Shown: positions 2,264-53,357 of the stretch, piece by piece | Layout: the number at the start of each line of letters is the position of its first letter | Position numbering within the stretch: position 1 is the first letter of the stretch | NCBI GenBank assembly: GCA_041390685.1 | Contig: JAWKPL010000001.1 | Location: 556,141 to 620,140 of the forward strand | Reading direction: 5' to 3' | DNA: 64,000 nucleotides | Source of the DNA: Dehalococcoidia bacterium | GTDB lineage: Bacteria; Chloroflexota; Dehalococcoidia; UBA2979 | Program-made: the position numbers and the translations under genes | The notes under the pieces: model-generated | Database searches by the model: none | What the model was told of the DNA's origin: nothing | The model's input: the letters and a program-made list of their open reading frames with translations, nothing else

Positions 2264-4540
2264 GTGGTCGCGACAGAGCCGTACAAGGTGGTAGGTACCC
2301 GGCCGGTGCGTCCGGACGGGGTGGACAAGGTGACGGGCCGCGCGATGTACGGCGCGGACGTGAAGATGCCAGGGCTGCTGTACGCGCGGGTGAAGCGGAG
2401 CCCGCACGCGCACGCGGTAATCAAGCGGATTGACACCTCGAAGGCGGAGGCGCTGCCGGGGGTGAAGGCGGTGGTGACGCGGGCGGACTTCCGGACGGCG
2501 CCGGAGGGGCTGGTCGACCTCGGCGAGGGGACGGGCAACCTCAAGTACATGCTCGACAACGTGTGCGCGAGCGACAAGGCGCTGTATCGCGGGCACGCGG
2601 TGGCGGCGGTGGCGGCGACGGACCTGCACATCGCGGAGGACGCGCTCGACCTGATCGAGGTGGAGTACGAGGTGCTGCCGCCGGTGCTGAACGTGCGCGA
2701 CGCGATGACGGAGAGCGCGCCGATCCTGCACGACGACCTGCGTACGGCGGAGATGATCAGCCTGTTCGAGCCGCCCACCCCAGGGGCGGGTCAGGCGACG
2801 AACGTCGCGAGCCACATGCGGCTGGCGCAGGGCGACATGGTGGCGGGGTTCGCGGAGGCGGACATCGTGCTCGAGCGGGAGTTCGAGACCTCGATGGCGC
2901 ACCAGGGGTACATCGAGCCGCACAACGCGACGGTGCTGTGGAACAAGGACGACGACATCACGGTATGGACGAGCACGCAGGGGCCGTTCTCGGTGCGGTC
3001 GGCACTGGCGGGGCTGCTCGACCACCCGGTGTCGAAGATCCGGGTGATGCCGGTGGAGATTGGCGGCGGGTTCGGTGGGAAGATCCCCGTGTACCTCGAG
3101 CCGTTCGCGGCGCTGCTGTCGAAGAAGTCGGGCGCGCCGGTGAAGATGTGGATGACGCGCGAGGAGGTGCTCGAGGCAACGGGGCCGACCTCGGGGACGT
3201 ACATGCGGGCGAAGCTGGGCGCGAAGCGTGACGGCACGATCACGGCGGCGGAGGTGTACCTGGCGTTCGAGGCGGGTGCGTACCCGGGGTCGCCGGTGGG
3301 CGCGGGCGTGATGTGCGCGGTGGCGCCGTACACGATCCCGAACGTGCAGGTGGACGGGTTCGACGTGGTGGTGAACCGGCCGAAGGTGGCAGCGTACCGC
3401 GGGCCGGGCGCGCCGCAGGCGGAGTTCGCGGTGGAGTCGGTCGTCGACGAGATCGCCGAAGAGCTGGGGATGGACCCGATCGACCTGCGGATGAAGAACG
3501 CGGCCGTCGAGGGGACGCGTCGCGCGGATGGGGTCGTCTTCGGACGCATCGGCAACGTGGAGGTACTGCAGGCGATCAAGGACAGCCCGCACTACCGAAG
3601 CGAGCTGGAGGGTGAGAACCGGGGTCGCGGCGTGGCGATCGGGTTCTGGTTCAACGTAGGCTTCGAGTCGGCGGCGTACGCCTCGGTGAACACGGACGGG
3701 ACGGTGGCGTTGACGACGGGGTCACCGGACATCGGAGGGACGCGGGCGGCGCACGCGATGCAACTCGCGGAAGCCCTCGGCATTCCGTACGAGGACGTGA
3801 AGCCGCACGTGGTGGACACGGACTCGATCGGATACACGAACGTGACAGGCGGCAGCCGAACGGCGTTCGCCGGCGGCTGGGCCGCGTACGAGGCAGCGAT
3901 GGACATCGCGCGGCAACTGGAGGCGCGGGCGGCGCACATCTGGGAAGTGGACGCCGGCAGCGTGCGGTACGAGGACGGGAAGCTGTCCGGGCCAGAGGGC
4001 CGGACGATGACGTTCAAGGAGATTGCCGCGCAGCTGCCGCACACCGGCGGCATGGTCCAGGGTCGTGCGAGCGTGAACCCGACGGAGGTTGGGCCCTCGT
4101 TCGCGGGGCACATCTGCGACGTAGAGGTCGACCCGGACACGGGGAAGGTGGAGATCCTGCGCTACACGGCGGTGCAGGACGTAGGGCAGGCGGTGCACCC
4201 CTCGTACGTCGAAGGGCAGATGCAGGGCGGGGCCTCGCAGGGCATCGGGATGGCGCTGAACGAAGAGTACTTCTACGACGAGAACGGCGTGATGCGGAAC
4301 TCGAGCCTGCTCGACTACCGGATGCCGACGGCACTGGACCTGCCGATGATCGACACGATCCTCGTGCAGGTGCCGAGCGAGGGGCACCCGTACGGTCTGC
4401 GCGGGGTGGGCGAGGTGCCGATCGTGCCGCCGATGGCGACCGTGTCGAACGCGATCTACCACGCGACGGGGCTGCGGATGCGGAAGCTTCCCGCCTCGCC
4501 ACGGGTGTTGCTGGACGAGCTGCTGGGGCCGGAGGCGTAA
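2264..4540 (+). CDS. Xanthine dehydrogenase family / aerobic CO-dehydrogenase CoxL-like molybdopterin-binding large subunit (758 aa), orphan
   Basis: Translation 'MVATEPYKVVGTRPVRPDGVDKVTGRAMYGADVK...' has typical Mo-hydroxylase large-subunit signatures throughout. GTG start 6 nt after GGAGG. No FAD or 2Fe-2S subunit genes adjacent. Confidence 0.85.
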   Translation: MVATEPYKVVGTRPVRPDGVDKVTGRAMYGADVKMPGLLYARVKRSPHAHAVIKRIDTSKAEALPGVKAVVTRADFRTAPEGLVDLGEGTGNLKYMLDNVCASDKALYRGHAVAAVAATDLHIAEDALDLIEVEYEVLPPVLNVRDAMTESAPILHDDLRTAEMISLFEPPTPGAGQATNVASHMRLAQGDMVAGFAEADIVLEREFETSMAHQGYIEPHNATVLWNKDDDITVWTSTQGPFSVRSALAGLLDHPVSKIRVMPVEIGGGFGGKIPVYLEPFAALLSKKSGAPVKMWMTREEVLEATGPTSGTYMRAKLGAKRDGTITAAEVYLAFEAGAYPGSPVGAGVMCAVAPYTIPNVQVDGFDVVVNRPKVAAYRGPGAPQAEFAVESVVDEIAEELGMDPIDLRMKNAAVEGTRRADGVVFGRIGNVEVLQAIKDSPHYRSELEGENRGRGVAIGFWFNVGFESAAYASVNTDGTVALTTGSPDIGGTRAAHAMQLAEALGIPYEDVKPHVVDTDSIGYTNVTGGSRTAFAGGWAAYEAAMDIARQLEARAAHIWEVDAGSVRYEDGKLSGPEGRTMTFKEIAAQLPHTGGMVQGRASVNPTEVGPSFAGHICDVEVDPDTGKVEILRYTAVQDVGQAVHPSYVEGQMQGGASQGIGMALNEEYFYDENGVMRNSSLLDYRMPTALDLPMIDTILVQVPSEGHPYGLRGVGEVPIVPPMATVSNAIYHATGLRMRKLPASPRVLLDELLGPEA

Positions 4541-4564: not shown

Positions 4565-5383
4565 TCAACGGGCCCGGGGCAATGCCTCGGGCCCGTTCCT
4601 GTGGCGGGTGACGGCGTAGAGCAGCGCCGCGCCGACCAACGCGACCACGATGGCGCTCAACTGGGCCTGCTTGAGGCCGAGCAGGGTGACGGTGTTGTCG
4701 CGCCAGAAGAAGACGATGAACTGGGTGATGCTGTAACCGACCAGGTAGAGCGCGAAGATCGCTCCAGGCACGGTCTTGCGGCGGAGCAAGACGACGAGGA
4801 AGCCCAGCAGGAGCAGGTTGGCGAGGATGGCATACGCCGCGGCGGGATGGTAGGGGACGCCGAGCTCCGGGACGAAGGCGCGTTCGTGGACGTAGCGCGT
4901 GGCCCAGGGGACGGTGGTCTCGTAACCGATGACGTCGCCATTGATGACGTTCCCGAGGCGGCCAAAGGGCTGGCCGACGAGTGCGGCCACCGCCATGGCA
5001 TCGAGGAGGGGCCAGACGGAGATGTGGCGCCAGCGAGCGAAGGCGATGGTGACCGCGGCGACGGCGATGATGGCGCCGAAGAAGGCCATGCCGCCCTCCC
5101 ACACGGCGAACACCTCGGCGGGATGGTCCAGGTAGTAGCCGGGGCGGTTCTGAGCCACGTAGTAGAGGCGGCCACCGAGGAGGCCGGCGGGGATGGCGAG
5201 CACCGCGAGGTCCCAGAGCTCATCGACGCGGGCGCCGAGGCGCGGGGCGAGGCGGCGCAGGACGAGCACGGCGGCGAGGATGCCGGCGACGTACATGAGG
5301 CCGTACCAGCGCACGGAGAGCGGGCCGAGCGTGAAGGCCACGGGGTCGATGGAGATGGTGATTGCCAGAAGGTCGAGAGCCAT
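4565..5383 (-). CDS. lgt: Prolipoprotein diacylglyceryl transferase
   Basis: 272 aa multi-TM protein with Lgt signature 'GQPFGRLGNVINGDVIGYETTVPW' and an N-terminus like 'RWYGLMYVAGI'. Confidence 0.85.
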   Translation of the reverse strand: MALDLLAITISIDPVAFTLGPLSVRWYGLMYVAGILAAVLVLRRLAPRLGARVDELWDLAVLAIPAGLLGGRLYYVAQNRPGYYLDHPAEVFAVWEGGMAFFGAIIAVAAVTIAFARWRHISVWPLLDAMAVAALVGQPFGRLGNVINGDVIGYETTVPWATRYVHERAFVPELGVPYHPAAAYAILANLLLLGFLVVLLRRKTVPGAIFALYLVGYSITQFIVFFWRDNTVTLLGLKQAQLSAIVVALVGAALLYAVTRHRNGPEALPRAR

Positions 5384-5464
5384 TGGCGCGGTCCGATCGT
5401 TGAAGCGGGCGAGCGTGGCCGAGGCCCGGACGTGGTCCGCCCGAGCCTCGGCCAGCCGTCGGCG

Positions 5465-5875
5465 CTAGGGCGCGACCACCTTCAACCAGAGCGTAAGCGC
5501 TCTCGCGTCGTCCGGCGTGAGGGACGCGGTCTTCGACCACGCCGGCATTGCGGTGCCGGAGCGACCGTTGAGAATCGTGTCCTCGTAGACGGCGTTGTCC
5601 CTGGTGAGTTTCTTCGGCGTCAACTCGGGGCCGACTCCACCCTGACGCTTCGCGCCGTGGCAGGCCGAGCAGTTGGCCTGGAAGAACTCAGCGACCGGCT
5701 GACCTTTGACTTTGCCCTCGGCGGCTGCAGCGGCCTCAGCGCTCGTGACGGTGGTGGTCGCGGCGGCGTCGCCACCCGACTCCTCGTCCGACCCACTGGA
5801 GCATGCGGCTGCGATGAGTGTGAGGAGGGCGAGACTCAGCGCGAGCAGCGATGCGCGCGTCGTTGAAGCACTCAT
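5465..5875 (-). CDS. c-type cytochrome, probable lipoprotein (~136 aa)
   Basis: Signal peptide ending in the lipobox-like 'LIAAAC', heme-binding 'CSACHG', and a Met ligand region. Start taken at the internal M8 ('MSASTTRASLL'). Confidence 0.7.
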   Translation of the reverse strand: MSASTTRASLLALSLALLTLIAAACSSGSDEESGGDAAATTTVTSAEAAAAAEGKVKGQPVAEFFQANCSACHGAKRQGGVGPELTPKKLTRDNAVYEDTILNGRSGTAMPAWSKTASLTPDDARALTLWLKVVAP

Positions 5876-6016
5876 GGTGCTGTTCCTTTCGCTCAAGGTG
5901 TGGAACGAGATCAGGGCGCCGCGCCGCCCTCGTGCCGTCGTTCCAAGGCGGCTCGCGAGGTCGTGCCTCGAGGGCTGGGACCAGAACGGAGCGGCAAGTG
6001 CTCGCGGCGCCGGCGA

Positions 6017-6583
6017 CTACGCCTTCGGCGGCGGGTCAGGGGCGGAGGTGAGCCAGGAAACGAGCGACCGATCGGGGCAGGTGGACGCGGCGATCCACGG
6101 GGATGAGAGCGGGGGCGCGACCGGAGGTTCGGGTACCAGCATGGACACCGAGAGCAGCGTCTGGTCGAACGTGAACACGACATCCTGGCGCGCGGCGGCA
6201 GCGGCTGTGTCGTCCTCGATGGCCGCGCCGGAAGCTTCGCCGGAGGGGGCAGGCACGATGCCATCGGGGTGCAGCTCGCAGAGGTGGAAGACCGGCGCGG
6301 CCGCAGGCGCGGGGCCTGGCGCTTGCTCCCACGGGTGTGTGTGCGGGACCGGCACGCCACCGGCGTAGATGTGGCCGTGCGACGCAGACCAGCCGGCGAG
6401 CCCGGGCGACAGCGGGGTGAGGATGGGGAGGAAGAGCGAGGCCACGGCCGCGAACGCGAGCAAGCGCGCGACCGGAGCGTTTGTGAACCGTGTAACGAAC
6501 CCGTACACGACCGCAGTATGGGCGGGCGGACGGCGGCGTTCAACGGGGCGGCCGCCCCTGGAACGCAGGAGGCCGTGCGTCAC
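6017..6583 (-). CDS. Hypothetical membrane-anchored protein with His motifs (HGH, HTH, HLCELH)
   Basis: ORF with strong GC3 bias. One TM segment 'VARLLAFAAVASLFLPILTPL' followed by a Pro/Ala-rich region. No family recognised and the start is uncertain. Confidence 0.4.
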   Translation of the reverse strand: MTHGLLRSRGGRPVERRRPPAHTAVVYGFVTRFTNAPVARLLAFAAVASLFLPILTPLSPGLAGWSASHGHIYAGGVPVPHTHPWEQAPGPAPAAAPVFHLCELHPDGIVPAPSGEASGAAIEDDTAAAAARQDVVFTFDQTLLSVSMLVPEPPVAPPLSSPWIAASTCPDRSLVSWLTSAPDPPPKA

Positions 6584-6671
6584 GCCGAGGCGGCGATGTG
6601 CGAAACGGATTCACCGCGCTTCCTGCTCGGAGGCAGCGAGCGCGCGCGGGAGGCACCGAGACCGTCGTTCG

Positions 6672-7400
6672 TCAGAGCGGGTCGTCGCCCGCCGCTGCGC
6701 GGAGGCCCGCTACGTCTTGGATCTGAATGGTGTTGCGAGAGAGGGAGAGGAGCCCGCGGTCTCGGAAGTCGCCGAGCGCCCGGGTCACGGTCTCGCGGTG
6801 GGTGCCGACCGTCTCGGCGAGTTCCTGGTGGGTCATCGACAGACGGTCGCCGCGCTGCTCCCAGGCGCGGACGAGGGCGGCGGCGACTCGGGACGGGACA
6901 TCGCGGAGGGTGCTCTCCTCGAGGCGCGCTTCGAGGTCGACGAGGCGTCCGGCGAGGATCTGGACGAGGCGGATGCCGATGACCGGATAGGCGGCGATGA
7001 GGCCCTCGATGTCGCTGGGGCTCATGACGCAGATCGTTGAGTCCTCGGTGGCCTCGGCGTAGCCGCCGAGCATGCGGTTGCCGGTGAAGGACATATTGCC
7101 GAAGGCAGTGCCAGGGAGGACGGTGCCGATGGTGAGCTTGCGGCCGTCGGCGGCGAGCCGGTAGATCTGAATGCGACCCTGTTTCAGCAAAAACAGCGCC
7201 TCTGACGCGATACCGGGCTCATAGACGGTGCGGCCGGCGGGACAGGTGGTCATGACGGTCATCTGGTCGACCTGGCGCATTTGCTCCTCGGAGAGGTCGC
7301 GGAAGAGGTCGGAGGCGCTGAGGAGTCCGAGCTTGCTTTCGAGCGAGCGGGCGGGCCGGGGAGCGGCGGCCGGCGGGGGTTCACGGCGAAACAGCTTCAT
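6672..7400 (-). CDS. Crp/Fnr family transcriptional regulator
   Basis: 242 aa with a cNMP-binding-like beta-roll and C-terminal HTH ('THQELAETVGTHRETVTRALGDF'). Its start overlaps the upstream thioredoxin stop (ATGA). Confidence 0.8.
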   Translation of the reverse strand: MKLFRREPPPAAAPRPARSLESKLGLLSASDLFRDLSEEQMRQVDQMTVMTTCPAGRTVYEPGIASEALFLLKQGRIQIYRLAADGRKLTIGTVLPGTAFGNMSFTGNRMLGGYAEATEDSTICVMSPSDIEGLIAAYPVIGIRLVQILAGRLVDLEARLEESTLRDVPSRVAAALVRAWEQRGDRLSMTHQELAETVGTHRETVTRALGDFRDRGLLSLSRNTIQIQDVAGLRAAAGDDPL

Positions 7401-7657
7401 GCCGGGCCCCCGGCCAGACGGATGGCCGCCTCGAGGTCGGCGAGCCTCGGGTTGCCGAGGGAGACGACGCGGCCGTTGAGGATGTAGGTGGGCACCGCCG
7501 CGACGAGGTGGCGGTGTGCTCCCTGGTCGCCGCGGGCGTACACGAGCGTCACCGTCACCTCCGGGTGCTCCGCTTCCACCTGGCGGGCGAGGGCGGCGGC
7601 CCGCTGGCAGGTGGCGCAGCCTTCGTCCACGTAGACCTCGAGCTCAATGGTATCCAT
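7397..7657 (-). CDS. Small thioredoxin/glutaredoxin-like protein (CATC active site)
   Basis: 86 aa, 'VYVDEGCATCQRA...PTYILNGRVV' fits the thioredoxin fold. Confidence 0.7.
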   Translation of the reverse strand: MDTIELEVYVDEGCATCQRAAALARQVEAEHPEVTVTLVYARGDQGAHRHLVAAVPTYILNGRVVSLGNPRLADLEAAIRLAGGPA

Positions 7658-7663
7658 CGGCGG

Positions 7664-8461
7664 TCAGACCCGGCTTGGCAGCTGGAAGGTGCGGTCGAGG
7701 AAGGGGATGCGGGCGAGGCGGCTCATGTGGAGTCCGAAGACCACGAGCAGCAATCCTCCGGCGCGGGTGAAGGTATCGAGGTGCGGCCCGATGGCAGAGC
7801 CGGCGAGTCCGGAGAGGGCGCCGAGAATGGTGAAGACGAGGGCGAAGCCCGCGACGAAGACGGCGGCATGCCGCAGCATGTGCCGCCTCTGCGCCGCAGT
7901 CTCCTCACCGGGGCGGACGACCTCGCCGGTGAGGGTGGCGAGGTACACGGGGACGAGCGGGAGCACGCAGGGGGAGAGGAAGGAGAGCATGCCGCCGAGG
8001 AAGGCGACGCCGAAGCCGAGCCAGCCCCCGAGGCCGGCGACCGCGCGCTGCTCGGCATCAGCCGCCTGGCCGAAGGCGAAGCCGTAGGCGAGGAAGTATT
8101 CGTTGAGGCGGGCGAATTGCCCGGTGAGAAGGGCGATGCCGACGAGGATGAACAGGACGCCTCCGGCCACCGTGAGCCAGGGCAGGTACGGCTGCGCCTG
8201 ACGCAGGCGAGGCATGAGGGAACCGAACGCGGCTCCGATGGCAAGGAACCACCCCCCGAGCCCGAGTGCGTAGGCGAGCAACAGCACCGCGCCCTGCGCC
8301 GCCGTGCCAGAGGTGGCGGCCAGAGTGAGGATGCCCGCGAGGATGGGGCCGATGCAGGGCGACCATGCGACTGCGAACGTGGCCCCGACCGCGGCAGAGC
8401 GGGGGTAGCCGCCGAGCGCGGACCGCCAGGCCGGACGCTGACCGAGCGCGGGGTCCGTCAT
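7664..8461 (-). CDS. ccdA: Cytochrome c biogenesis / DsbD-family transmembrane electron transporter CcdA, permuted domain order
   Basis: 265 aa. 'WSPCIGPIL' (canonical TM4 motif) lies in the N-terminal half and 'FLSPCVLPLVPVYLA' (canonical TM1 motif) in the C-terminal half. The ATG overlaps the stop of the upstream ResA-like gene (ATGA). Confidence 0.8.
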   Translation of the reverse strand: MTDPALGQRPAWRSALGGYPRSAAVGATFAVAWSPCIGPILAGILTLAATSGTAAQGAVLLLAYALGLGGWFLAIGAAFGSLMPRLRQAQPYLPWLTVAGGVLFILVGIALLTGQFARLNEYFLAYGFAFGQAADAEQRAVAGLGGWLGFGVAFLGGMLSFLSPCVLPLVPVYLATLTGEVVRPGEETAAQRRHMLRHAAVFVAGFALVFTILGALSGLAGSAIGPHLDTFTRAGGLLLVVFGLHMSRLARIPFLDRTFQLPSRV

Positions 8462-8967
8462 GAGGCCTGTTGCAGCGCGGCCTCGATGGCACCGGAGAAC
8501 TGGGCGGCGGAGGGCTGATAGAAGAAGCGCGTCACCTCGCGGCCTGCGCCATCGAGGAGGACGAACGTGGGGGTGCCTCGTACCGCGTACTTCGACGATG
8601 CGCCGCGGTCGCGGTTCGCCTCCTTTTCGACGAAGCGCATGCGGTCTCGGAACCCGGCGGCGGTCTGGTGCGCGAAGGGCTCCATCTGCGCGCAGAACTC
8701 GCAGGAGGTGCCAGAGAACCAGACGAGGGTGGGGCGGCCGTCGGGCGAGGGGGCGTCCGCGCTGGGGAGCGGGTCCGGAGAGTGATAGACGGTGTGGTGC
8801 GAGCCCGAGTAGCGGACGACGGCGCCGCCGGCGTTCGCCTCCGCGGCCTCCTGCGTCGCAGCGCTGGCGGCTCCGCCGCCGCCTTCATCGGAGGAGCCAC
8901 CGAGCGCGTACACGCCGAGCGCGATGACGAGGGCGGCGACAGCGGCCAGCGGGAGCCAGCGGCGCAC
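8458..8967 (-). CDS. Membrane-anchored TlpA/ResA-like thiol:disulfide oxidoreductase (CEFC)
   Basis: Only the C-terminal 169 aa of track ORF 8458..9537 look real: TM anchor, 'WFSGTSCEFCAQ', thioredoxin fold. The upstream part is Arg-rich read-through. GTG start with GGGAG 7 nt upstream. Confidence 0.7.
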   Translation of the reverse strand: MRRWLPLAAVAALVIALGVYALGGSSDEGGGGAASAATQEAAEANAGGAVVRYSGSHHTVYHSPDPLPSADAPSPDGRPTLVWFSGTSCEFCAQMEPFAHQTAAGFRDRMRFVEKEANRDRGASSKYAVRGTPTFVLLDGAGREVTRFFYQPSAAQFSGAIEAALQQAS

Positions 8968-9143
8968 GAGCGGGCTCCCAGTTGACCTTCGTTTCTGCTG
9001 CTGCTTTGCCTGGCGGCGTCGCTCGCTGGGTGTCACCCTGCACCTCCCGTGGCGTATTTCGCTCGATGCTTCCCAACACAGGGCAGCACGCGGCGCGGGC
9101 CGCGGGCTGTGATCTGCGTCACGCAGGTCTCTTATCGGAAGCC

Positions 9144-9644
9144 TCAGCGGCGACGGGCGCCGCCGGTGAGCGCGAGCAGGAGTCCGGCCATCGCACCGAA
9201 CGCGAACGTGTGTGACACAAATTGCAGCGGCCGGTCGGCGTCGGTGAACCAGTCGCGGCCGGCGGCGGGAGCGAGGACGTAGAAGTTGACGAGCCAGATG
9301 ACAGCACCGTAGGCCATGGCCAGTGAGAGCGTGCCGTAGAGGGAGCCCCGAGCGGCGGGAACGACCTCGATGAGCGCGGCGAGCGCCACCCCGAGCATCA
9401 TCGACACCATCATGTGGGTGACGAGGCCGAGGGGGATGGCGGCGGCGAGACCGATGTCTTCGGGCATCCTGCCGAGGGGCAGGGAGGCAATCATGCGCAG
9501 GGGCATCCAGAAGCCCATGCCGACGGCCGCGGACCACGTCATCGCGACCATGGCCATGGCCATCCCGGCTACGGCGCCGACGACGGCACCTCGGACTACG
9601 ACTGTGCTGGACTGTCGGGTGGCGACTTCGCTGACAGCAGACAC
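9144..9644 (-). CDS. Hypothetical integral membrane protein (4 TM)
   Basis: 166 aa hydrophobic ORF with coding-like composition. No family assigned. Confidence 0.45.
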   Translation of the reverse strand: MSAVSEVATRQSSTVVVRGAVVGAVAGMAMAMVAMTWSAAVGMGFWMPLRMIASLPLGRMPEDIGLAAAIPLGLVTHMMVSMMLGVALAALIEVVPAARGSLYGTLSLAMAYGAVIWLVNFYVLAPAAGRDWFTDADRPLQFVSHTFAFGAMAGLLLALTGGARRR

Positions 9645-9755
9645 CGCGGGGCTCCTCTCTCCTCGTCCGTTGGTCTCCCGAAGCTAGGAGCCGCCAGCCG
9701 CGGCGACAGTGACGGCGGTCACCGGCAGCCGTGATCTCGCGGGCATGAGAGCGAC

Positions 9756-10532
9756 TCAGTCGCCGGGCCGCAGCTCCCAGGTGCGGTAGAGGAGGGGCAC
9801 CCGGATCGCGCCCGCGAGGTTCAGCCCGAGCACGATGAGGAGGACGCCGGCGACCTTCTGGATCGTCGCGAGGTTGTCCTGCACGAGGTAGCCGACGACG
9901 CCGACGGAGGCGCCGATGAGCACGAAGACGACGGAGAAGCCGAACACAAAGGCGGCGGCGTGGCGGAGCGTGGCGAGGCGCTGCCGGCGCCCGGCGTCCT
10001 CGGCGGCGGTGACGCCGGCGAGGTGGCCGAGGTAGACGGGGACGAGCGGGAGGCAGCAGGGGGAGATGAAGGCGATGATGCCAGCCAGGAAGGCGGTGGC
10101 GAAGCCGAGCGGACCGCTGAGGCCCAGCCCCTCGATGGAACCTTCGGCCTCGACGACGGTGCGAGCGCCGGGGGCGAAGTACTGGTTGAACACGGTGAAG
10201 CGGTCGATGAAGACGAGGATGCCGACGAGGATCACGAGGACGCCGGCGACGCCCTCGATGGCGGGCAGCAGGGGGCGGACGCGGCGTGTGGCCGCCATCA
10301 GCTCACCGACGCCGAGGCCGGCGAGGAGGAAGGGGAGGCCGAGGCCGGCCGACCAGGCCATGAGCAGCGTGGCGCCATGGAGGACGGTACCCGAGGAGGC
10401 GGCGAGGAGGAGGATCGCGCCGAGGATGGGGCCGATGCACGGCGTCCATGCGACGGCGAAGCCGGCGCCGACGACGAACGAGCGGCCGTAGCGAGCGGGC
10501 GCGGGCAGAGCAGTGGTACGGATCCTCATGTG
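9756..10532 (-). CDS. ccdA: CcdA/DsbD-family transmembrane protein, second paralog, permuted domain order
   Basis: Start taken at the internal Met 'MRIRTTALPAPARYGRSF'. 'WTPCIGPIL' comes first, then 'FISPCCLPLVPVYLGHLAG' and TM2/TM3-like segments. Same permutation as the copy at 7664..8461. Confidence 0.8.
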   Translation of the reverse strand, partial: HMRIRTTALPAPARYGRSFVVGAGFAVAWTPCIGPILGAILLLAASSGTVLHGATLLMAWSAGLGLPFLLAGLGVGELMAATRRVRPLLPAIEGVAGVLVILVGILVFIDRFTVFNQYFAPGARTVVEAEGSIEGLGLSGPLGFATAFLAGIIAFISPCCLPLVPVYLGHLAGVTAAEDAGRRQRLATLRHAAAFVFGFSVVFVLIGASVGVVGYLVQDNLATIQKVAGVLLIVLGLNLAGAIRVPLLYRTWELRPGD

Positions 10533-10727
10533 CGGGGTGCCGGGGCTTCCATGACTCGCGGCCTCGCCTCCGCCTCGTGAGGGTCGCGCGGGCCGCCTAC
10601 GGCGCTCGGTGATCACGGTCACCAACGGCTGCGCGGACGTCCGCTAGCGTCATACGCTACATAGCAGGCGCGCGCATGACACGCGCGCCATTGAGGGACC
10701 CTGAGCGCCGAGGACGAACGGAGTGAC

Positions 10728-11699
10728 GTGGCCGTCGACGTGCGTCGCCTGCTGATCGTGATCGCCCTGGTCGCCGGGGGCGTGGCGGCGATGTGGGTGT
10801 TCGTCCTCGGGGACCCCGCGGACGAGGAGGCGGGCTTCACGGACGCGCAGATCGTGGAGGCGACGGCGGAGCCCTCGCGGGCGGTGCCGGTCGGGCTGCG
10901 GGACGGCGAGCAGGCGCCCGACTTCGAGATCTCGAGGATGGACGGGACGCGGGTCCGGCTGAGTGACTTTCGCGGACAGCCGGTGGTGATCAGCTTCTTC
11001 GCACTGTGGTGCGGGGGCTGCCTCGCGGAGATGCCCATACTCCAGTCCGCGCAGTCGGAGCGTGGCGTGGACCACTTCACGGTACTGGCGGTGAACGCGG
11101 GAGAGACACGGGAGCGGGCGCAGGAGTTCATCGACATCATCGACGCGCCATTCGTGTGGACGCTGGACTTCGACCTGACCGTGAGCGACGCCTACGGGGT
11201 GCACGGGCTGCCGCACACCGTGTTCATCGACGCGGAGGGTATCGTGCGCACGACGTACGCAGGGGCGACGAACCGCGTGCGCCTCGATACGTACCTTGAC
11301 GCCGTGGTGCGCGGGACCGAGCCGGCGCCGCTTCCCAACGAGCTGCGGTTCGTGACGAGGATCCCGCGGGACCACGTGCTGGACGTGGACGTGCGCGACG
11401 CTTCGACGGTCGTGCTGTCCTCGCGGCGGCTGCGGTGCGATGTCGCCTACTGCGCGGATTCGGTCTCCGAGGCGCTGCTGGGTACGGCGGGCGTGCTTGC
11501 CGTGAGCGCGGCGGCCGGACGAACGGCAGACGAATCCTCGCTGGAGGTCCGGTTCGACTCGGAGACCGTGACGGCGGAGGCACTGGTGGAGGCCGTCGTA
11601 GCGCTCCTCGACGGACTGCCGGACCCGCTGTTCCGGGGCGTCCCGCTGGTGGTGCGGACGGGCAGCGGGGACGCGGACGCGGAGCGGGAGACGGAGTGA
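10728..11699 (+). CDS. TlpA-like thioredoxin (WCGGC) with N-terminal TM anchor and an extra ~130 aa C-terminal domain containing CDVAYC
   Basis: 323 aa. Redoxin domain 'VVISFFALWCGGCLAEMP'. The C-terminal extension has no recognised family. GTG start. Confidence 0.7.
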   Translation: MAVDVRRLLIVIALVAGGVAAMWVFVLGDPADEEAGFTDAQIVEATAEPSRAVPVGLRDGEQAPDFEISRMDGTRVRLSDFRGQPVVISFFALWCGGCLAEMPILQSAQSERGVDHFTVLAVNAGETRERAQEFIDIIDAPFVWTLDFDLTVSDAYGVHGLPHTVFIDAEGIVRTTYAGATNRVRLDTYLDAVVRGTEPAPLPNELRFVTRIPRDHVLDVDVRDASTVVLSSRRLRCDVAYCADSVSEALLGTAGVLAVSAAAGRTADESSLEVRFDSETVTAEALVEAVVALLDGLPDPLFRGVPLVVRTGSGDADAERETE

Positions 11700-12298
11700 C
11701 GGCGGCCGAGCGGCGCGGCGGGGAGATCGACGAGCACCCAGGGACCGACCAGCTGCGCCGACGGCTGTCGCGCGCGCTGGCCGGAGGCGCCGGGGCGCTG
11801 CTCCTCGTGCTGGCCGTGCTGGGGCTGGGGGGCGTGTCCAGCGGGGGTACGCCTACGGCGGCACCTCCGTTCGAGCTCGAGTTGCTGGAGGGGGGCCGCG
11901 TGACGAACGCGGACCTCGCGGGTCGGGTGGCGGTGATCAACGTGTGGGCATCGTGGTGCCCGCCGTGCCGGGAGGAAGCGCCGGCGTTGCGGCGGACGGC
12001 GGAGCGCTTTGCCTCGGAGCCGGTGGTGTTCCTCGGGGTGGTCCGCGACGATAGCGCGGAGGAAGCGCTGGCGTTCGCGCGGGAGTGGGGGCTGTCGTAC
12101 GCGCACGCGATGGGGGATGAGGCCTTTCTGTCCGACTTCGGGGCGCGGGGCATCCCCATGACCTACGTCCTCGACGCGAACGGGGGCGTCCTGGTGCGGC
12201 ATTACGGGCCGATCTCCGAATCGAAGCTCACGGCACTGATCGAGGACGCGCTGTCGCGTCCGGCCGGGGTCAACGGTCCCGTTGAGGACGCCTCGTGA
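11696..12298 (+). CDS. TlpA-like thioredoxin (WCPPC), membrane anchored
   Basis: GTG start overlaps the upstream stop (GTGA). TM segment then 'VAVINVWASWCPPCREEAP'. The preceding 87 aa of the track ORF are Gly/Arg-rich read-through. Confidence 0.7.
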   Translation: MTAAERRGGEIDEHPGTDQLRRRLSRALAGGAGALLLVLAVLGLGGVSSGGTPTAAPPFELELLEGGRVTNADLAGRVAVINVWASWCPPCREEAPALRRTAERFASEPVVFLGVVRDDSAEEALAFAREWGLSYAHAMGDEAFLSDFGARGIPMTYVLDANGGVLVRHYGPISESKLTALIEDALSRPAGVNGPVEDAS

Positions 12299-13032
12299 GT
12301 GGGGTTGTGGAGTTCGTGCAGGTGCGGGGGGAGTACGTCTCCTTCTTTCTCGTGCTGGCGATGCTATGGGCCAGCGGCGGGACGATCGCCCGGCTGGTGG
12401 GGCTTCCTCGACGGGCGGTGGGGGACCTGACGTTCAACGGCGCGGTGGCCTTCGTGGCCGTGGGGCGGCTCGGCTACCTCGCGACCGAGGCGCCGCGATC
12501 ACTCCTCGACCCGCTGGTGGTGATCCGGTTCCAGGCGGGCATTGAGCCGCTCGTGGGAGCGGCGGCGGTCGCAGCCGTGGCCGCCTGGCAGACACGAGGC
12601 CAGGATGCCGTCGCGCGGTGGGGGGTCGCGGGGGCGGCCTCGATCGGGCTGGCGGTGGCGACGGTGGGGTACGACGTCACGTGCGTGGTGCGTGACGCCT
12701 GCTACGGGGCGGCGGCTCCCGCGCCATTCGGGTTCGAGATGTCGGGGCTCAGTGAGCCGCGGATCGCGACGCCGCTGGTGGAGGCAACGTTGCTGATGGC
12801 GGCGGGGGCGGTGCTGCTGCGGATCGGAGGGCGGCTCACGGTGGCGACGGCAGCGCTGCTGCTGGGGACGCTGGCGCTCACGCGGGCAGCGCTGACTCCG
12901 GCGTCGGCACTGGGGGTGGAGGCGGTGGGCCTCGAAACGGTGGTGCTCGTCGTGGTGGGGATCCTGGCGGTGGGGTGGGCGATCGTCCTCGGCGGGCGCG
13001 GTACAGCGGCGGTGGATGGGTCGGCAGGGTAG
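12295..13032 (+). CDS. Hypothetical polytopic membrane protein, translationally coupled to the two thioredoxins
   Basis: 245 aa, about 6 TM segments, CxxxxxC ('TCVVRDAC') in a loop. GTG start overlaps the upstream stop (GTGA). Could be a MauE/DoxX-like partner, but I do not recognise the family. Confidence 0.5.
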   Translation: MSGVVEFVQVRGEYVSFFLVLAMLWASGGTIARLVGLPRRAVGDLTFNGAVAFVAVGRLGYLATEAPRSLLDPLVVIRFQAGIEPLVGAAAVAAVAAWQTRGQDAVARWGVAGAASIGLAVATVGYDVTCVVRDACYGAAAPAPFGFEMSGLSEPRIATPLVEATLLMAAGAVLLRIGGRLTVATAALLLGTLALTRAALTPASALGVEAVGLETVVLVVVGILAVGWAIVLGGRGTAAVDGSAG

Positions 13033-15147: not shown

Positions 15148-15295
15148 GGCGGGCCTCCGGCTGAGGGCACGGTGAGGGTGGGGTGGTCGAACGGGCGGAT
15201 TGTACCTCGGAGTGCTGGTGGCGGCGTCGGGGGCGTCGCAGCGCCGCCTGCCAGGGGCCGTGCGAGGGAGGGGGAGCGGGACTATATTGCCGGCT

Positions 15296-18200
15296 ATGAC
15301 GTCGAGGTTCAGCCGCCCGGTCGTCTGTCCCGATCTGGTGGGGCGGGAGGCAGCGCTGGAGTGGCTGCGGCTGACGTACGCGGGGGCGGCGCGGCGGGGG
15401 TGCGTGGCGCTGGTCTCGGGGGAGGCGGGGATCGGGAAGACGCGGCTTGTCGCGGCGTTCCTCGATGAAGCGGTGGAGGCGGGCCGGTTCACGGCCCGAG
15501 CACGGTTCTTCTCCGATGATGCGGCGCTCCCGTTTTCAGGGATCGCGCGGCTGATCCTCGAGCTGGGGCACACAGAGCCGGAGAGGGGAGGGGTCGTCGG
15601 GCCGGTGGCCGACGAGCTGGCCCGAAACGCGCCGGAGCTGGCGCGTTTGCTCGGCGTGGGCCGCGGGGCGAGCACGGCGCCGGGGGTGGAGGATGCGGAC
15701 CCGGCGCGCCGCCGACGCAACATCGAGCTCGTCGCGCTGCTGCTGGTGGCGAACCTGCCCGCGGGCGGGGCGGTGCTCGCGATCGACGACGTGCACTGGG
15801 CGGACTCGACGAGCCTCGAGACGCTGCTGCACTTCGCGCGAGCGATGCCCGGCGGGTGCCTGCTGGTGCTGACGTACCGCAACGACGAGCAGTCTGGGGC
15901 GTTGCGAGCGCTGCTCGCGGACCTCGACCGGGAGCGGGTCGCCACGGAGATCGAGCTTGGTCCGCTCAGCGCCGGGGAGGTGGAGCGGATGGTGCGCGCG
16001 ACGGTGCAGCTGGATGCGGGCGGGCAACCGTCGCTGATGCGCCTCGTGCACACGCTCAGCGAGGGGAATCCGTTCCTGGTCGAGGAGATCCTGCGGACGG
16101 TGGTCGACGTCGCGGGGGCCGTGCAGCGTGTGCCGTCAGTCGACCTTGCTGCGCTGGACGTGCCGAGGAGCGTCGATGAACTCGTGCGCCGGCGAATGGA
16201 GTCTCTCGCGGATGATGACATCGAGATCGTGCGGCTCGCGGCGATCGCGGGGCAGCGTGTGGACCTGGCGCTGATGGCGGAGCTGACGGGGCACGATGAG
16301 GCGCGTCTGCTCGGAGCGATGCGACGTTGCATCGAAGCGCAGCTCGTGACTGAGGAGGCGTCGGGCGCGTTCGTCTTCCGGCACGCGCTGACGCGCGAGG
16401 CGATCCGATCGCGAGTGCTGCGGCGGGAGCGGCGGGCGATCAGCGCGCGGATCGCCCGCGCGCTGGAGCTCCGGATGTCGGGTGGCGGCGACGACGGTGT
16501 CGAGGAACTAGCGCAGCACTGGTACGAGGCGGAGGAGTGGGAGCAGGCGCACACACACGGTGTACGGGCGGGGCTGCGTGCTCTGGGGCTCGCGGCGCCG
16601 GAGGAAGCGCTCGCGCACTTCGAACGTGCGCTCGCGGCGGGCGAGCAGGCGGCGGTAGGCGACCTCTCGGCCGTGCGTCGTCTGCGAGGAACGGCGTTCG
16701 AGGGCCTGGGGGACTTCGAGGCCGCGCGGCGCGACTACGAGGCGGCAGTGGGCGATGGCGAGCGCGCGGGGAACACGCGCGAAACGTGGCGAGCGCTGCT
16801 GGACCTGGGTCTGCTCTGGGCGGCGCGGGACTACGGGCGGTCGGAGCCGTACTTCCGACGCGCGCTCGCGATCGCGCGTGAGACAGGGGACGCCGAGGCG
16901 ATCGGCCACAGCCTGAACCGGTTGGCGAACTGGTTCTCGAACACCGGGGACGCCGGGAGCGCAGTACGGCTGCACGAGGAGGCGCTCGGAATCTTCCGCC
17001 GCAGGGGAGACCGGGCCGGCGAGGCGCAGACCCTCGACCTGCTCGGCATGGCGTGCACGCAGCAGATGGACTTCGTGGGTGCAGCAAGGCACTACCGGGA
17101 GGCGATCCCGCTGCTGGAGGAGGCGCGAGACCGCGAGACGCTGAGCTCGGCGCTCGCATCGATCCAGATCGGGAGCGGGACGCGCCAGAGCGACATGACG
17201 ACCCCGGCGCTGACGCTCAGGGAGGGGAGCGACTACGGGCGTTACGCGCTGCGCATCGCGCGGGAAGCAGGGCGGCGGCCGTCGGAGGCCTACGCCCTGT
17301 GGCAACTGGCGTTCTCGCTCGGGCCGCAGGGGTTGTACGACGAGGCGCTGGCAGGGGCGGAAGGGGCGCTTCGGATCGCGCAGGAGATCGGCCACACGCA
17401 GTGGGAGATCGCGGCACGTTGCGTCCGCGGAGCGCTGATGACGGACCTCCTCGCGTTCGAGCGCGCTCGGAGATCACTCGAACGGGCAGCGGAGCAGGCG
17501 GCGGCGATGTCCTCGGGACTGTGGCTGGCGCAGGCGCAGGCGTTGCTCATCGACGCGCTGGTGGCGAGCGGGGAGCGCGAGGCCGCGGTCCGCCTGTTCG
17601 AGGCGACCAAGACGGCGGAGCCGGGTGCATTCGGCACGCGTCAGTGTTTCGCGTCCGGTGTGGAGGCGTTGCTGGCGGTCGGAGCGGTCGGACGCGCCTC
17701 GGCCATGCTCGACGCGCTGGAGGCGGCGACGAGCCCAGCGGGGGCCCTGGTGGCATTGCGTCTGGCGTATCTGCGTGGCCGGATCCTGGCCGCATCGGGT
17801 GACGAGACGGCTGCCGTGGGGGAGCTCGAGGCCGCGGCGGCAGCGGCGCGCGTGCAGGGTGACCGTTCGTACGAGTGGCGCCTCGAGTGCGAGCTGGCGG
17901 GGACGCGTGCGGCGGCGGGTGACCCGGAGGGGGCGCGCGCCGCGGGCCGACGGGCGGCAGCCGCGATCGACGAGGTCGCGGCGAAGGTCGGAGACCCGGA
18001 GTTGCAGGCGGGGTTCCTGCGAGGCGCGTACGCGCGTCTTCCAGCTTCGGTGCGACCGAACCGGGCACGTGACGGGTCGGGGCCGCTCACCTCGCGGGAG
18101 AGTGAGATTGCGGAACTGATCGCGGCGGGGCTGACCAACCGCGCCATCGCGGAGCGCCTGGTCCTGAGCCCCCGGACGGTGGAGTCGCACATCGCACACG

Positions 18201-25349: not shown

Positions 25350-25985
25350 TCAGCCGGGAGGGGTAGGACGTTCCAAGACCGTCCAGCGATAGCCACGTTG
25401 CCGCACGGTGCGTATCTCGAGCGAGGGGAGGCGCCGGAGCTTGTGGCGGAGTCGATAGAGATGCGCCTCGATGGCGCGCCGTTCGACTTCGGGGTGCCCG
25501 AGTGCTCGTGCCAGCGTCTGGGGCGTGACCGGCCGGCCCGCTCCCTCCATGAGGCAGCCGAGGAGACGCACCTCCGAGGCCGACAGGGGGACGAACGCGG
25601 ACCCGTGCTGGAGCCCGTCCGGGGTCAGCTCGGGCTGAACAGGCGACTCGGAGCGGCGCATTGCGCGGGCGCGGGTCGCGCGCCACAGGATCTCCTCGCG
25701 CGAGGCGCCGACGAAGACTAGATCGTCAGAGCGCGTTGTTATGTCCTGCATCGGCGTGACAGGATCGAACATGCGCAGGCAGAGATAGCCAGCGTCGGCG
25801 GCCGCTTCCTCGAGGAGACACTGGCCGGGGTGGGCCATGACCAGGACGACGGCGGAGGGTGGAACCCTGGTCAGTTCTCGCGAGGAGATGCCGGAGAGCG
25901 CTTCCGGTACGTTCGCCCGCACGAACTCGGGGACACGCTGTCCGATCGCGAGGGTGATGTCGTTCCGACGGTCGTCCGCCGTCAT
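25350..25985 (-). CDS. Winged-helix (OmpR/PhoB-type) DNA-binding regulator with atypical N-terminal domain
   Basis: C-terminal 'LSASEVRLLGCLMEG...YRLRHKL...RGYRW'. The N-terminal domain lacks clear receiver motifs. Confidence 0.55.
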   Translation of the reverse strand: MTADDRRNDITLAIGQRVPEFVRANVPEALSGISSRELTRVPPSAVVLVMAHPGQCLLEEAAADAGYLCLRMFDPVTPMQDITTRSDDLVFVGASREEILWRATRARAMRRSESPVQPELTPDGLQHGSAFVPLSASEVRLLGCLMEGAGRPVTPQTLARALGHPEVERRAIEAHLYRLRHKLRRLPSLEIRTVRQRGYRWTVLERPTPPG

Positions 25986-53223: not shown

Positions 53224-53357
53224 GCAGACTCCTCGATGTGGGCTGAGGCGGGACTATCCCGGCGGGCCTGACCGGGCTAACACGAAGCGAGTAAGATAGC
53301 GACGCCCGGCCGGAGGGGCGGGCGCAGTCACGACGCAATCCTCGGGAGGAATGCACC

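Follow-up and report, generated by a model that had tools for sequence, protein, structure and literature searches.

Gene Content of the Locus

We analysed a 64 kb window of a Dehalococcoidia genome of about 2.6 Mb. Pfam and NCBIfam searches placed every gene listed in the original prediction at its position and in the fold assigned to it. The 166-aa membrane gene at 9144–9644 (minus strand) was missing from that list. The genes and predicted operators are as follows.

4565..5383, minus strand: lgt, prolipoprotein diacylglyceryl transferase (Pfam LGT, E = 3e-63; TIGR00544, 164.5 bits, cutoff 118.9)
5465..5875, minus strand: monoheme cytochrome c (c551/c550-like) with signal peptide and lipobox (Cytochrome_CBB3, E = 1.5e-13)
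6017..6583, minus strand: His-rich orphan with an N-terminal hydrophobic segment (alternative start 6508)
6672..7400, minus strand: crp, CRP/GlxR-like regulator (cNMP_binding and HTH_Crp_2)
7397..7657, minus strand: trx3, 86-aa cytoplasmic mini-thioredoxin, CATC (Thioredoxin_3, E = 9.5e-9)
7664..8461, minus strand: ccdA1, circularly permuted CcdA, catalytic residues Cys36 and Cys165
8458..9036, minus strand: trxCEFC, membrane-anchored extracytoplasmic thioredoxin, CEFC (Thioredoxin_2 and Thioredoxin)
9109..9122: predicted Crp box 1, GTGATCTGCGTCAC, intergenic, 73 nt before the start of trxCEFC
9144..9644, minus strand: mem166, Met-rich 166-aa membrane protein with about four helices and without Cys (no family match)
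9709..9722: predicted Crp box 2, GTGACGGCGGTCAC, intergenic, 65 nt before the start of mem166
9756..10529, minus strand: ccdA2, circularly permuted CcdA, 47% identical to ccdA1
10609..10622: predicted Crp box 3, GTGATCACGGTCAC, between the divergently oriented ccdA2 (80 nt to its ATG) and tlpA-CGGC (106 nt to its GTG)
10728..11699, plus strand: tlpA-CGGC, anchored TlpA/Redoxin domain plus a C-terminal alpha/beta domain of about 130 aa (AhpC-TSA and Redoxin)
11696..12298, plus strand: tlpA-CPPC, anchored TlpA/ResA-like thioredoxin (Redoxin, E = 2e-18)
12295..13032, plus strand: predicted degenerate Lgt-fold polytopic membrane paralogue (HMM of Lgt-family ORFs; no Pfam match)

Redoxin and AhpC-TSA models are typical of ResA and TlpA. 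The CEFC protein, which had been called ResA-like, does have a thioredoxin fold, but it matches the generic Thioredoxin and Thioredoxin_2 models instead. Its GTG start at 9036 is preceded by GGGAGG, and its Arg/Lys-rich N-terminus is followed by a single hydrophobic helix. The cytochrome c gene encodes a CSACH heme motif and a LIAAAC lipobox, the latter read from the sequence. The His-rich orphan carries the motif SHGHIYAGGVPVPHTHPW, has no Pfam or NCBIfam match, and has homologues only in the near-identical assemblies L001 and L002. A mem166 homologue adjoins crp in the related locus L034, where it lies between two operator boxes, and another was found in L092.

Circular Permutation of the CcdA Proteins

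Alignment to the CcdA structure 5VKV, with which the Pfam matches agree, showed that the halves of both CcdA1 and CcdA2 are swapped, giving the helix order TM4-5-6-1-2-3. The two proteins are natural circular permutants in which two three-helix repeats have changed places. We found no description of natural circular permutation in the CcdA family, and the original prediction did not mention this architecture. None of the NCBIfam CcdA models reaches its cutoff on the permuted proteins, and some sources name them TauE/SafE.

Both halves are homologous to Thermus thermophilus CcdA (5VKV; E = 3.9e-26), and half by half they are 45–55% identical to canonical CcdAs. The permuted proteins share with CcdA (5VKV, B. 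subtilis, R. capsulatus) and the DsbD transmembrane domain (PF02683) an inverted 3+3 repeat of six helices, two catalytic Cys within PC motifs, and genes that adjoin those of extracytoplasmic thioredoxin-fold partners. However, the repeat order is swapped, an external linker has been added, and the termini, which are extracytoplasmic in canonical CcdA, are predicted to be cytoplasmic. The acidic linker of about 35 aa joins the old TM6 to the old TM1 and consists of the former C- and N-terminal tails; in this breakpoint class (type A) its sequence matches a canonical C-terminal tail fused to a canonical N-terminal head. The K+R counts per loop (3.8/0/3.0/1.3/3.4/1.0/1.8) predict an N-in/C-in topology with the linker outside. 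Judged by the positive-inside rule only, each helix would keep its native membrane orientation, and thus both ends of the permuted protein would be cytoplasmic.

The unusual order could be caused by assembly or gene-calling errors that join tandem ccdA fragments into one ORF, or the genes could be decaying pseudogenes. Circular permutation through tandem duplication does pass through tandem copies, and assemblies of metagenomic genomes can collapse repeats. However, at least 120 full-length collinear homologues (clusters at 90% identity from NCBI, ENA, JGI and Logan assemblies) were found in independent assemblies as single uninterrupted ORFs, some of them on megabase contigs. The genome has a third permuted copy outside the window, and the three paralogues, diverged to 47–56% identity, have the same order, which is also unchanged in the ccdA2 orthologues of L006, L007, L169 and L170. 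The two catalytic Cys, their PC motifs and a further 28 positions do not vary, charges are coherently distributed, the fold prediction is confident, and GC3 is 0.9. An artefact is therefore extremely improbable. A second breakpoint class (type B, TM2-3-4-5-6-1) occurs in relatives, and neither class formed a single clade in a crude tree.

Gene Junctions and the Predicted Operator

The original prediction described a minus-strand run with overlapping stops and starts. On this strand such overlaps (ATGA) exist only between trxCEFC and ccdA1 and between trx3 and crp; the regulator gene is indeed embedded among redox genes and overlaps the thioredoxin gene. Between ccdA1 and trx3 there is a 6-nt gap, and the intervals between the remaining minus-strand genes measure 81–163 nt, including 81 nt between lgt and its upstream gene. 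The overlapping run is not continuous. On the plus strand, the proposed coupling of three genes was confirmed in the sequence, where tlpA-CPPC overlaps both of its neighbours as GTGA.

A CRP-type palindrome, GTGA-N6-TCAC, which had escaped the original prediction, lies 65–90 nt upstream of the three promoter-proximal start codons of the island. The window contains five such sites, where 0.86 would be expected, and none of 100 shuffles reached five. Three of the five fall in the three intergenic promoter regions of the island, and a perfect box outside it is located at 26093. Box density per 10 kb was 4.6 in the island; elsewhere in the window it was 0.35, and unrelated ccdA loci (1.27 Mb) gave 0.24. 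No box was found at the cytochrome c gene, the His-rich orphan or lgt, and lgt is thus probably outside the regulon. An association of Lgt with the cytochrome c lipoprotein had been proposed from their adjacency. We found nothing further in its favour, and both genes are set off by gaps.

The same element recurs in related loci. It was found 49–65 nt upstream of trx3-crp in seven of them (L034, L086, L089, L099, L123, L129 and L171), and a symmetric variant, GTAA-N6-TTAC, was found in nine more. Exact boxes were present in 9/44 upstream regions compared with 1.2% of control windows. L169 and L170 contain seven and five boxes, respectively, all between called genes. The gene set itself recurs in relatives in several arrangements, and because of this the clustering of redox genes is not due to chance. 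Coding overlaps, an operator motif common to three promoter regions and recurrence with the Crp gene in other Dehalococcoidia together bear out the idea of a linked reductant-delivery system.

The Crp Regulator and Its Mini-Thioredoxin

The palindrome matches what the CRP-like recognition helix of the island Crp, RETVTR, would be predicted to bind. The protein belongs to a Chloroflexota subfamily of about 130 members in which R202, E203 and T204, the RET of this helix, are invariant, and among solved structures it is closest to T. thermophilus Crp (4EV0) and GlxR (3R6S). Domain architecture is common to the island protein, E. coli CRP, C. glutamicum GlxR and 4EV0, as are the RETVxR helix and a TGTGA-N6-TCACA-like operator among regulators of the CRP/GlxR type. 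The island Crp presumably lacks equivalents of the cAMP-contacting Arg82/Ser83 of E. coli CRP. Unlike those regulators, it is paired with a mini-thioredoxin gene, has a cysteine pair that covaries with this partner, and has a predicted regulon of thiol-redox genes. Since a box lies upstream of trxCEFC-ccdA1-trx3-crp, crp is placed for predicted autoregulation. The genome may contain further Crp paralogues that recognise this box.

The conserved trx3-crp pairing did not figure in the original prediction. A trx3 homologue of about 85 aa lies immediately upstream of crp in about 41–45 of 71–77 assessable loci (about 58%). CcdA occurs within 6 kb in 7 of 42 large loci of the subfamily, and the Crp–CcdA link is therefore limited to a subset. 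Cys53 and Cys124 of Crp are both present in 35/45 proteins with an adjacent trx3 but in 3/32 without it (Fisher's test, p = 1.5e-9, a value that ignores phylogeny). In our own alignment E. coli CRP likewise has a Cys at the position of Cys124, which thus need not be redox-active.

In the OxyR-GrxA and sigmaR-RsrA-TrxBA loops, a regulator with a thiol switch induces its own resetting reductase, and the FNR-like FLP of Lactobacillus casei is a precedent for a disulfide switch in the Crp/Fnr fold. The likeness to a putative Crp-Trx3 switch is one of analogy, and the cysteine positions of FLP are different.

The TlpA Pair and the Lgt-like Membrane Protein

Bradyrhizobium TlpA is a reductant for ScoI/CoxB, and ResA, CcsX and CcmG reduce apocytochrome. 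The island TlpA proteins have in common with them a membrane-anchored Redoxin fold, a WCxxC motif and a gene position beside CcdA. However, all scores of the corresponding NCBIfam equivalog models fall below their cutoffs; tlpA-CGGC has a partial ResA match (NF002854, E = 4e-26, 92 bits, cutoff 170). The island pair also differs in its translational coupling to an Lgt-like membrane protein and in the C-terminal domain of one member. This domain, modelled with a pLDDT of 84, carries the conserved motif LRCDxxYC. Across about 55 clusters of the tlpA-CGGC family, C95, C98 and C242 never vary, and at least 90% retain C237. In L169 and L170 the gene directly follows crp.

The membrane protein coupled to the TlpA genes, whose Lgt-like nature the original prediction had not recognised, is by profile similarity a degenerate Lgt-fold paralogue. 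A profile HMM of 11 Lgt-family ORFs aligned positions 20–246 of 268 to residues 10–228 of 245 with 20.6 bits; none of 300 locally shuffled controls exceeded 5.8 bits. GYDVT stands in place of the catalytic GRxGN motif.

Proposed Regulon and Its Function

We propose, with a probability of about 0.7, that 6672–13032 is a Crp-family-controlled regulon that exports thiol-reducing power to the cell envelope. Going by homology and gene pairing, the two CcdA-type proteins would carry electrons across the membrane from thioredoxin-type donors in the cytoplasm to thioredoxin-fold acceptors anchored on its outer side. CcdA1 would have the CEFC thioredoxin as its partner, and CcdA2 the two TlpA proteins and the Lgt-like membrane protein.

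CcdA is the usual supplier of reductant for cytochrome c maturation in Gram-positive-type envelopes. The locus could accordingly be an accessory of classical system II maturation, in which CcdA and thioredoxins of the ResA/CcsX type keep the apocytochrome CxxCH in reduced form; CcsBA would then have its gene elsewhere, and the surplus thioredoxins would be redundant paralogues. The cytochrome c gene 800 nt downstream of crp, the partial ResA match and a type-B permuted CcdA directly after a CcmC-like ORF in L017 agree with this. However, the cytochrome c gene has no operator box, and the pathway does not need as many as three CcdA paralogues and four CxxC proteins. No ORF of the window scanned against Pfam matched ResB, CcsA or Ccm, no WWD-motif ORF was found there, and none of the three families was seen within 7–10 kb of the examined type-A CcdA or trx3-crp loci. 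The reported absence of CcsBA/ResBC thus holds for the 64-kb window and cannot be extended to the genome of about 2.6 Mb. In the relatives examined, the neighbours of trx3-crp are DsbA-like, DUF3179, thioredoxin, glutaredoxin, TlpA and DUF7482 genes, never heme-handling genes. We consider a system II accessory locus unlikely. The designation "cytochrome c maturation island" does not apply in any demonstrable sense, and the locus reads as a thiol-reductant export regulon.

In Streptococcus pneumoniae, CcdA1 and CcdA2 each supply a dedicated surface thioredoxin-fold protein, Etrx1 or Etrx2, and do not serve cytochrome c maturation (PMC3914529). The island is similar in that its two CcdA paralogues each have their own surface thioredoxin-fold proteins. 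However, the pneumococcal pathway includes MsrAB2 and the island has no Msr gene; the acceptors are lipid-anchored there and helix-anchored here; and the permuted CcdAs and the Crp-family regulator and mini-thioredoxin embedded in the operon set the island apart.

This parallel may also indicate envelope defence or repair against copper or oxidative stress, as in Scs (ScsB/C/D) or CcdA-Etrx-MsrAB2, in which the thioredoxins would reduce mis-oxidised cysteines, copper-centre assembly factors or oxidised methionines. The conserved Cys pair in the extra domain of TlpA-CGGC, the Met-rich membrane protein, the His-rich orphan, a stress-type regulator with predicted autoregulation and a box upstream of a glutaredoxin gene in L170 are in line with such a role. 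Two JGI records call members of the tlpA-CGGC family "peroxiredoxin/copper chaperone CopZ". However, the Pfam HMA match of the extra domain (E = 0.047) is below threshold, and Foldseek returned HMA structures only at ranks 29 and 40 and nothing at E ≤ 1e-3. Moreover, neither the window nor the related loci that we inspected yielded an msrA, msrB, sco, copA or multicopper oxidase gene, and the His-rich protein is confined to the source species. Stress defence as the specific role is possible, although we would not assume it.

For the thiol-reductant export regulon, the neighbours of trx3-crp in relatives support the earlier suggestion of a role that probably goes beyond cytochrome c maturation; the substrates probably include apocytochrome c without being limited to it. 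We tentatively suggest that co-translated Trx3 might reset a candidate Cys53–Cys124 thiol switch in Crp and close a feedback loop. Such a loop would match the supply of reductant in the envelope to oxidative or thiol stress.

Gene Content and Organization of the Redox Island

The window, which has a GC content of about 70%, matches the Dehalococcoidia MAG GCA_050181135.1; a 2.6-Mb contig carries the same proteins in identical form. All genes named in the original prediction are present, and as an observation it was largely right; only the gene encoding a 166-aa membrane protein (mem166) had been omitted from its list.

Genes of the redox island
4565–5383, minus strand, Lgt
5465–5875, minus strand, monoheme cytochrome c with CSACH motif and lipobox
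6017–6583, minus strand, His-rich orphan
6672–7400, minus strand, Crp-family regulator
7397–7657, minus strand, trx3, an 86-aa Thioredoxin_3 protein with CATC motif
7664–8461, minus strand, CcdA#1
8458–9036, minus strand, trxCEFC, a helix-anchored thioredoxin with CEFC motif
9144–9644, minus strand, mem166, a 166-aa Met-rich, Cys-free membrane protein with about four helices and no family
9756–10529, minus strand, CcdA#2
10728–11699, plus strand, TlpA-CGGC
11696–12298, plus strand, TlpA-CPPC
12295–13032, plus strand, 245-aa membrane protein, degenerate Lgt-fold paralogue

A minus-strand run with overlapping stops and starts had been proposed. The 4-nt overlaps are real and delimit two compact units, trxCEFC-ccdA1-trx3-crp and tlpA-tlpA-membrane protein, but the other minus-strand genes are set apart by gaps of 81–163 nt. 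The scan for sigma-70 promoters and terminators gave no promoters, and its terminator-like matches were implausible.

The window also contains three gene pairs recognised by their matching Pfam architecture: molybdopterin-binding xanthine-dehydrogenase-like subunits (2264–4540 and 53295–55637), HTH_65-methyltransferases (18463–19524 and 55706–56962), and large AAA-TPR-LuxR (STAND-type) regulators (15200–18316 and 39965–43033).

Permuted Architecture of the CcdA Proteins

The solved CcdA of T. thermophilus (5VKV) was used as the reference for an alignment. In CcdA#1, residues 150–249 correspond to chain residues 5–93 of 5VKV (TM1-3) and residues 6–125 to chain residues 91–212 (TM4-6). Pfam matches gave reversed halves in both CcdA#1 and CcdA#2, and we named the resulting helix order, TM4-5-6-1-2-3, type A. 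Six hydrophobic segments are present and both halves align to 5VKV, as in a six-helix 3+3 inverted repeat; Foldseek gave no informative match. The collinear TM1–TM6 with extracytoplasmic termini of the CcdA/DsbD_TM family (PF02683) was not found in them. Because of this helix order and of the predicted cytoplasmic location of both termini, we regard these proteins as permuted variants and not as canonical PF02683 members. The two catalytic cysteines, C36 (WSPCIGP) and C165 (SPCVLP), lie one in each three-helix repeat and are invariant in 63 homologues, as are about 28 further positions.

This order is no artefact: the 120 best matches are full-length, collinear relatives with 52–64% identity, drawn from NCBI, ENA, JGI and Logan assemblies. 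A third paralogue (P0060), located on the same 2.6-Mb contig outside the window, has the same type-A order. Exact-sequence searches for the genomic context of CcdA#1 and of P0060 gave no record.

Both termini of canonical CcdA lie outside. The K+R counts per loop in the permuted form (3.8/0/3.0/1.3/3.4/1.0/1.8) predict a cytoplasmic position of both termini under the positive-inside rule, and the acidic linker at 113–150 is predicted to be extracytoplasmic; thus, every helix would retain its canonical CcdA orientation. The linker resembles the canonical C-terminal tail (FNxYF...) joined to the canonical N-terminal head (...G.FGFAVAF). Such a junction is the hallmark of permutation via tandem duplication, fusion and truncation. 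Tandem-fused 12-helix intermediates were sought among the matches with three aligned stretches, all of which were canonical proteins with long loops.

An inverted-repeat, elevator-type model has been presented for the CcdA fold (bioRxiv 10.1101/2022.09.07.506916). No description of a circularly permuted CcdA or DsbD was found in the literature searched, and some sources annotate the permuted proteins as TauE/SafE. Their genomic partners are the genes of the CEFC thioredoxin and of the TlpA proteins. From this pairing we propose that the permuted CcdAs would pass electrons from cytoplasmic thioredoxin to extracytoplasmic thioredoxin-fold partners.

A Second Permutation Class and the CcdA Tree

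A search of 1.84 billion representatives placed type A in about 6–9 of the best 150 clusters. Seven others (P0121, P0138, P0142, P0163, P0168, P0219 and P0265) showed the order TM2-3-4-5-6-1, here named type B, in which the TM1 helix "SPCVLPLVP" is placed at the C-terminus; the remainder were canonical. In the genome scan, type A was confined to the Dehalococcoidia loci L001–L007. The hosts of type B were Dehalococcoidia, Anaerolineae, a Trueperaceae MAG and unclassified bins (L008–L012, L015, L017 and L059).

All sequences were re-ordered to the canonical order and a neighbour-joining tree was built (69 sequences, 230 columns, 100 bootstraps). In this crude tree with weak deep nodes, type A and type B were each monophyletic in 0 of 100 bootstraps, so that a single origin of either type was not recovered. 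The CcdA#2 group paired with the canonical P0131 in 89 of 100 bootstraps, and CcdA#2 is 52–55% identical to canonical halves versus 46.5% to CcdA#1. The lack of monophyly and the closeness of CcdA#2 to canonical proteins tentatively suggest that the CcdA order may have been permuted repeatedly or may have reverted.

Thioredoxin-Fold Proteins and the Lgt-Like Protein

In the CEFC protein an N-in anchor precedes a thioredoxin fold of generic type, which matches generic thioredoxin models only. The two TlpA proteins carry a Redoxin/AhpC-TSA domain, a membrane anchor and the motifs WCGGC and WCPPC, as expected for TlpA/Redoxin proteins. The TlpA-CGGC family comprises about 55 clusters of 308–326 aa, in which WCTSC is the usual motif. 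Its C-terminal domain (residues ~195–323) is conserved in the family, with the motif LRCDxxYC, in which R-C-D-x-x-Y-C is invariant, and was modeled as a beta-beta-alpha-beta-beta-alpha-beta sandwich (pLDDT 84).

Two JGI records name family members "CopZ". The HMA model (PF00403) matched this domain at E = 0.047, its 14.5 bits lying below the cutoff of 24.8. No Foldseek match reached E ≤ 1e-3, and HMA domains appeared there at ranks 29 and 40. The motif is CxxxxC, versus CxxC in HMA. An assignment to HMA stays below threshold, and the link is only suggestive.

The 245-aa protein (12295–13032) scored 20.6 bits end to end with a custom Lgt HMM, compared with 5.8 for the best of 300 shuffled controls. 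The Pfam Lgt model (PF01790) did not match it, and direct BLASTP against Lgt gave only a 16-residue match (E = 0.078), so a profile was needed. At the position of the catalytic G-R-x-G-N with its essential Arg, the protein reads GYDVT; because this motif is lost, we treat it as a degenerate paralogue and not as an Lgt enzyme. In loci from several phyla, lgt or lgt-like ORFs stand directly beside ccdA, often together with tlpA (L018, L020, L021, L026, L028, L032, L036, L041, L047 and L065), in MAGs of Chloroflexota, Eremiobacterota/Vulcanimicrobiota, Acidobacteriota and others.

Relation to Cytochrome c Maturation

No genes for ResB, CcsA, Ccm proteins or oxidases turned up in the 64-kb window, which otherwise encodes unrelated functions, and neither CcsB/ResB nor CcsA/ResC (WWD domain) was found beside the type-A CcdA loci examined. 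Regular expressions for the WWD motif picked up nothing but CcmF and CcmC, both in loci unrelated to the island. The heme-handling part of System II was thus missing both from the window and beside these loci. The ResA equivalog model (NF002854) gave the CGGC protein 92 bits, below its cutoff of 170.

The original prediction had noted the absence of CcsBA/ResBC. This is correct within the 64-kb window and overreaches as a genome-wide statement, because about 2.5 Mb of the genome lies outside it. The reading of the genes as a linked set that delivers reductant beyond System II was right, while the link drawn between Lgt and the cytochrome went too far. In L017, a CcmC-like ORF with WNTWWTWD immediately precedes a type-B CcdA, and this neighbourhood makes a role in cytochrome c maturation possible, though such a role is not specifically indicated for the island.

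The Crp Regulator and Its Candidate Operator

The regulator has the CRP/FNR architecture, with a cNMP-binding beta-roll (PF00027, E = 4.6e-14) followed by an HTH domain (PF13545, E = 1.4e-17). It is CRP/GlxR-like, its closest solved relatives being 4EV0 (E = 3.7e-23) and 3R6S, and its subfamily of about 130 clusters comes from Dehalococcoidia and other Chloroflexota. The recognition helix reads RETVTR, with RET invariant in the subfamily alignment. This is a recognition helix of the E. coli CRP type, and helices of that type read TGTGA half-sites.

The window contains five copies of the palindrome GTGA-N6-TCAC, compared with 0.86 expected, and none of 100 shuffles reached this number. Three of the five boxes lie in the three promoter regions of the island. 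One precedes trxCEFC by 73 nt and another precedes mem166 by 65 nt; the third is in the divergent ccdA2/tlpA region, 80 nt from the ccdA2 start and 106 nt from the tlpA start. The island has 4.6 boxes per 10 kb, compared with 0.35 for the remainder of the window and 0.24 for other ccdA loci totalling 1.27 Mb. A CRP-type helix and TGTGA-N6-TCACA-like operators thus occur together, and these boxes are the predicted binding sites. With its own box, a homologue that adjoins crp in L034 and a second homologue in L092, mem166 is a candidate member of the regulon.

The sole perfect TGTGA-N6-TCACA in the window is located at 26093–26106. It separates a divergent OmpR-type regulator gene on the minus strand (25350–26012) from an operon for an oligopeptide ABC transporter (from 26149), and either this Crp or a different one may act on it as well.

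The trx3-crp Module in Related Loci

A trx3-like gene lies directly upstream of crp in about 41–45 of 71–77 assessable loci, often with a 4-nt overlap. About 49–65 nt upstream of trx3 we found either the GTGA-N6-TCAC palindrome or the symmetric variant TGTAA-N6-TTACA. The exact palindrome was present in 9 of 44 upstream regions, against 1.2% of control windows, and the GTAA/TTAC variant in nine additional regions. That both half-sites change together is the behaviour expected of the operator of a dimeric regulator.

Two loci (L169 and L170) have the order trx3-crp-tlpA, with a tlpA of the CGGC family, accompanied by a divergent type-A CcdA that belongs to the CcdA#2 group. Seven boxes were found in L169 and five in L170, all between called genes. 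Boxes at 4011/4082 of L169 and at 13217 and 2323/2438 of L170 precede radical-SAM/methyltransferase, YjeF_N and glutaredoxin genes, and this placement suggests that the regulon is wider than envelope thioredoxins.

A Tepidiformaceae contig (L034) combines trx3-crp, mem166, a Trx-BrxC fusion, a canonical 8-helix CcdA and TlpA, with three boxes in 5.2 kb. The thioredoxin-BrxC (monothiol bacilliredoxin) fusion (2454–3293) and the adjoining CcdA (3290–4321) both lie beside trx3-crp, and this CcdA keeps the canonical order, with an insertion of roughly two additional helices after TM3 and before TM4. In L110 and L122 the genes run ccdA-trx3-crp, and the CcdA is canonical. In L172, whose Crp is about 76% identical, trx3-crp stands alone and boxes flank a DUF7482 gene. 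From these arrangements, the order in the window looks as if trxCEFC-ccdA1 had been inserted between the operator and trx3-crp. The Crp–CcdA association is not universal, as a CcdA occurs within 6 kb in only 7 of 42 large loci of the Crp subfamily.

Two further families recur beside trx3-crp, DUF3179 (L087, L088, L090–L092, L147, L170 and L171) and DUF7482 (L088, L169, L172 and L173), the latter with a Crp box 76 nt upstream in L172 and L173. Both are absent from the island of the window.

A Possible Thiol Switch in Crp

R82/S83 of E. coli CRP and the N-terminal Cys cluster of FNR have no counterpart in this Crp: the positions aligned to the cAMP-contacting R82/S83 read (Y/F)AEA, and an FNR-type cluster is absent. 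Cys124 is present in 45/45 Crp proteins with an adjacent trx3 versus 20/32 without, and Cys53 in 35/45 versus 4/32. Both residues occur together in 35/45 versus 3/32 (Fisher's test uncorrected for phylogeny, p = 1.5e-9). By alignment to E. coli CRP, they presumably lie on strands beta1 and beta8, which are neighbours in the jelly roll.

Together, the covariation with trx3, the beta1/beta8 placement and the missing cAMP and FNR features lead us to propose that Crp could be a thiol-disulfide sensor reset by Trx3, although we rate the chances of this as somewhat worse than even. The co-translated Trx3 would reset a Cys53–Cys124 disulfide in the Crp beta-roll. The OxyR–GrxA loop is an instance of feedback between a regulator and a reductase, and its likeness to the proposed Crp–Trx3 logic is an analogy only.

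The wider reading, to which we assign a probability of roughly 0.3, is that the CcdA repeats may be interchangeable modules reshuffled repeatedly in Chloroflexota, and that a Cys53–Cys124 switch in Crp would govern the supply of envelope reductant.

Significance

The interest of the locus lies in the permuted CcdA architecture and in the trx3-crp operator module, both backed by sequence data and by comparison with other loci. To our knowledge, few polytopic membrane proteins occur as natural circular permutants. A family whose canonical and permuted members share 45–55% identity provides ready-made material on the role of repeat order in folding and topogenesis; such pairs bear on the elevator-type electron transfer that has been proposed for CcdA and DsbD, inform the evolution of inverted-repeat proteins and raise the question of why annotation models miss such variants. 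The presence of "CcdA plus thioredoxins" alone does not warrant an annotation as cytochrome c biogenesis.

We know of almost no experimental work on regulation in Chloroflexota. The trx3-crp module and its operator give a well-defined candidate regulon for thiol homeostasis in the envelope, one that lends itself to testing. If the wider reading is true, Chloroflexota would hold a series of naturally occurring permutants, with at least two breakpoint classes, of a membrane protein of the inverted-repeat, elevator type, and a previously undescribed Crp-fold thiol switch over the supply of envelope reductant.
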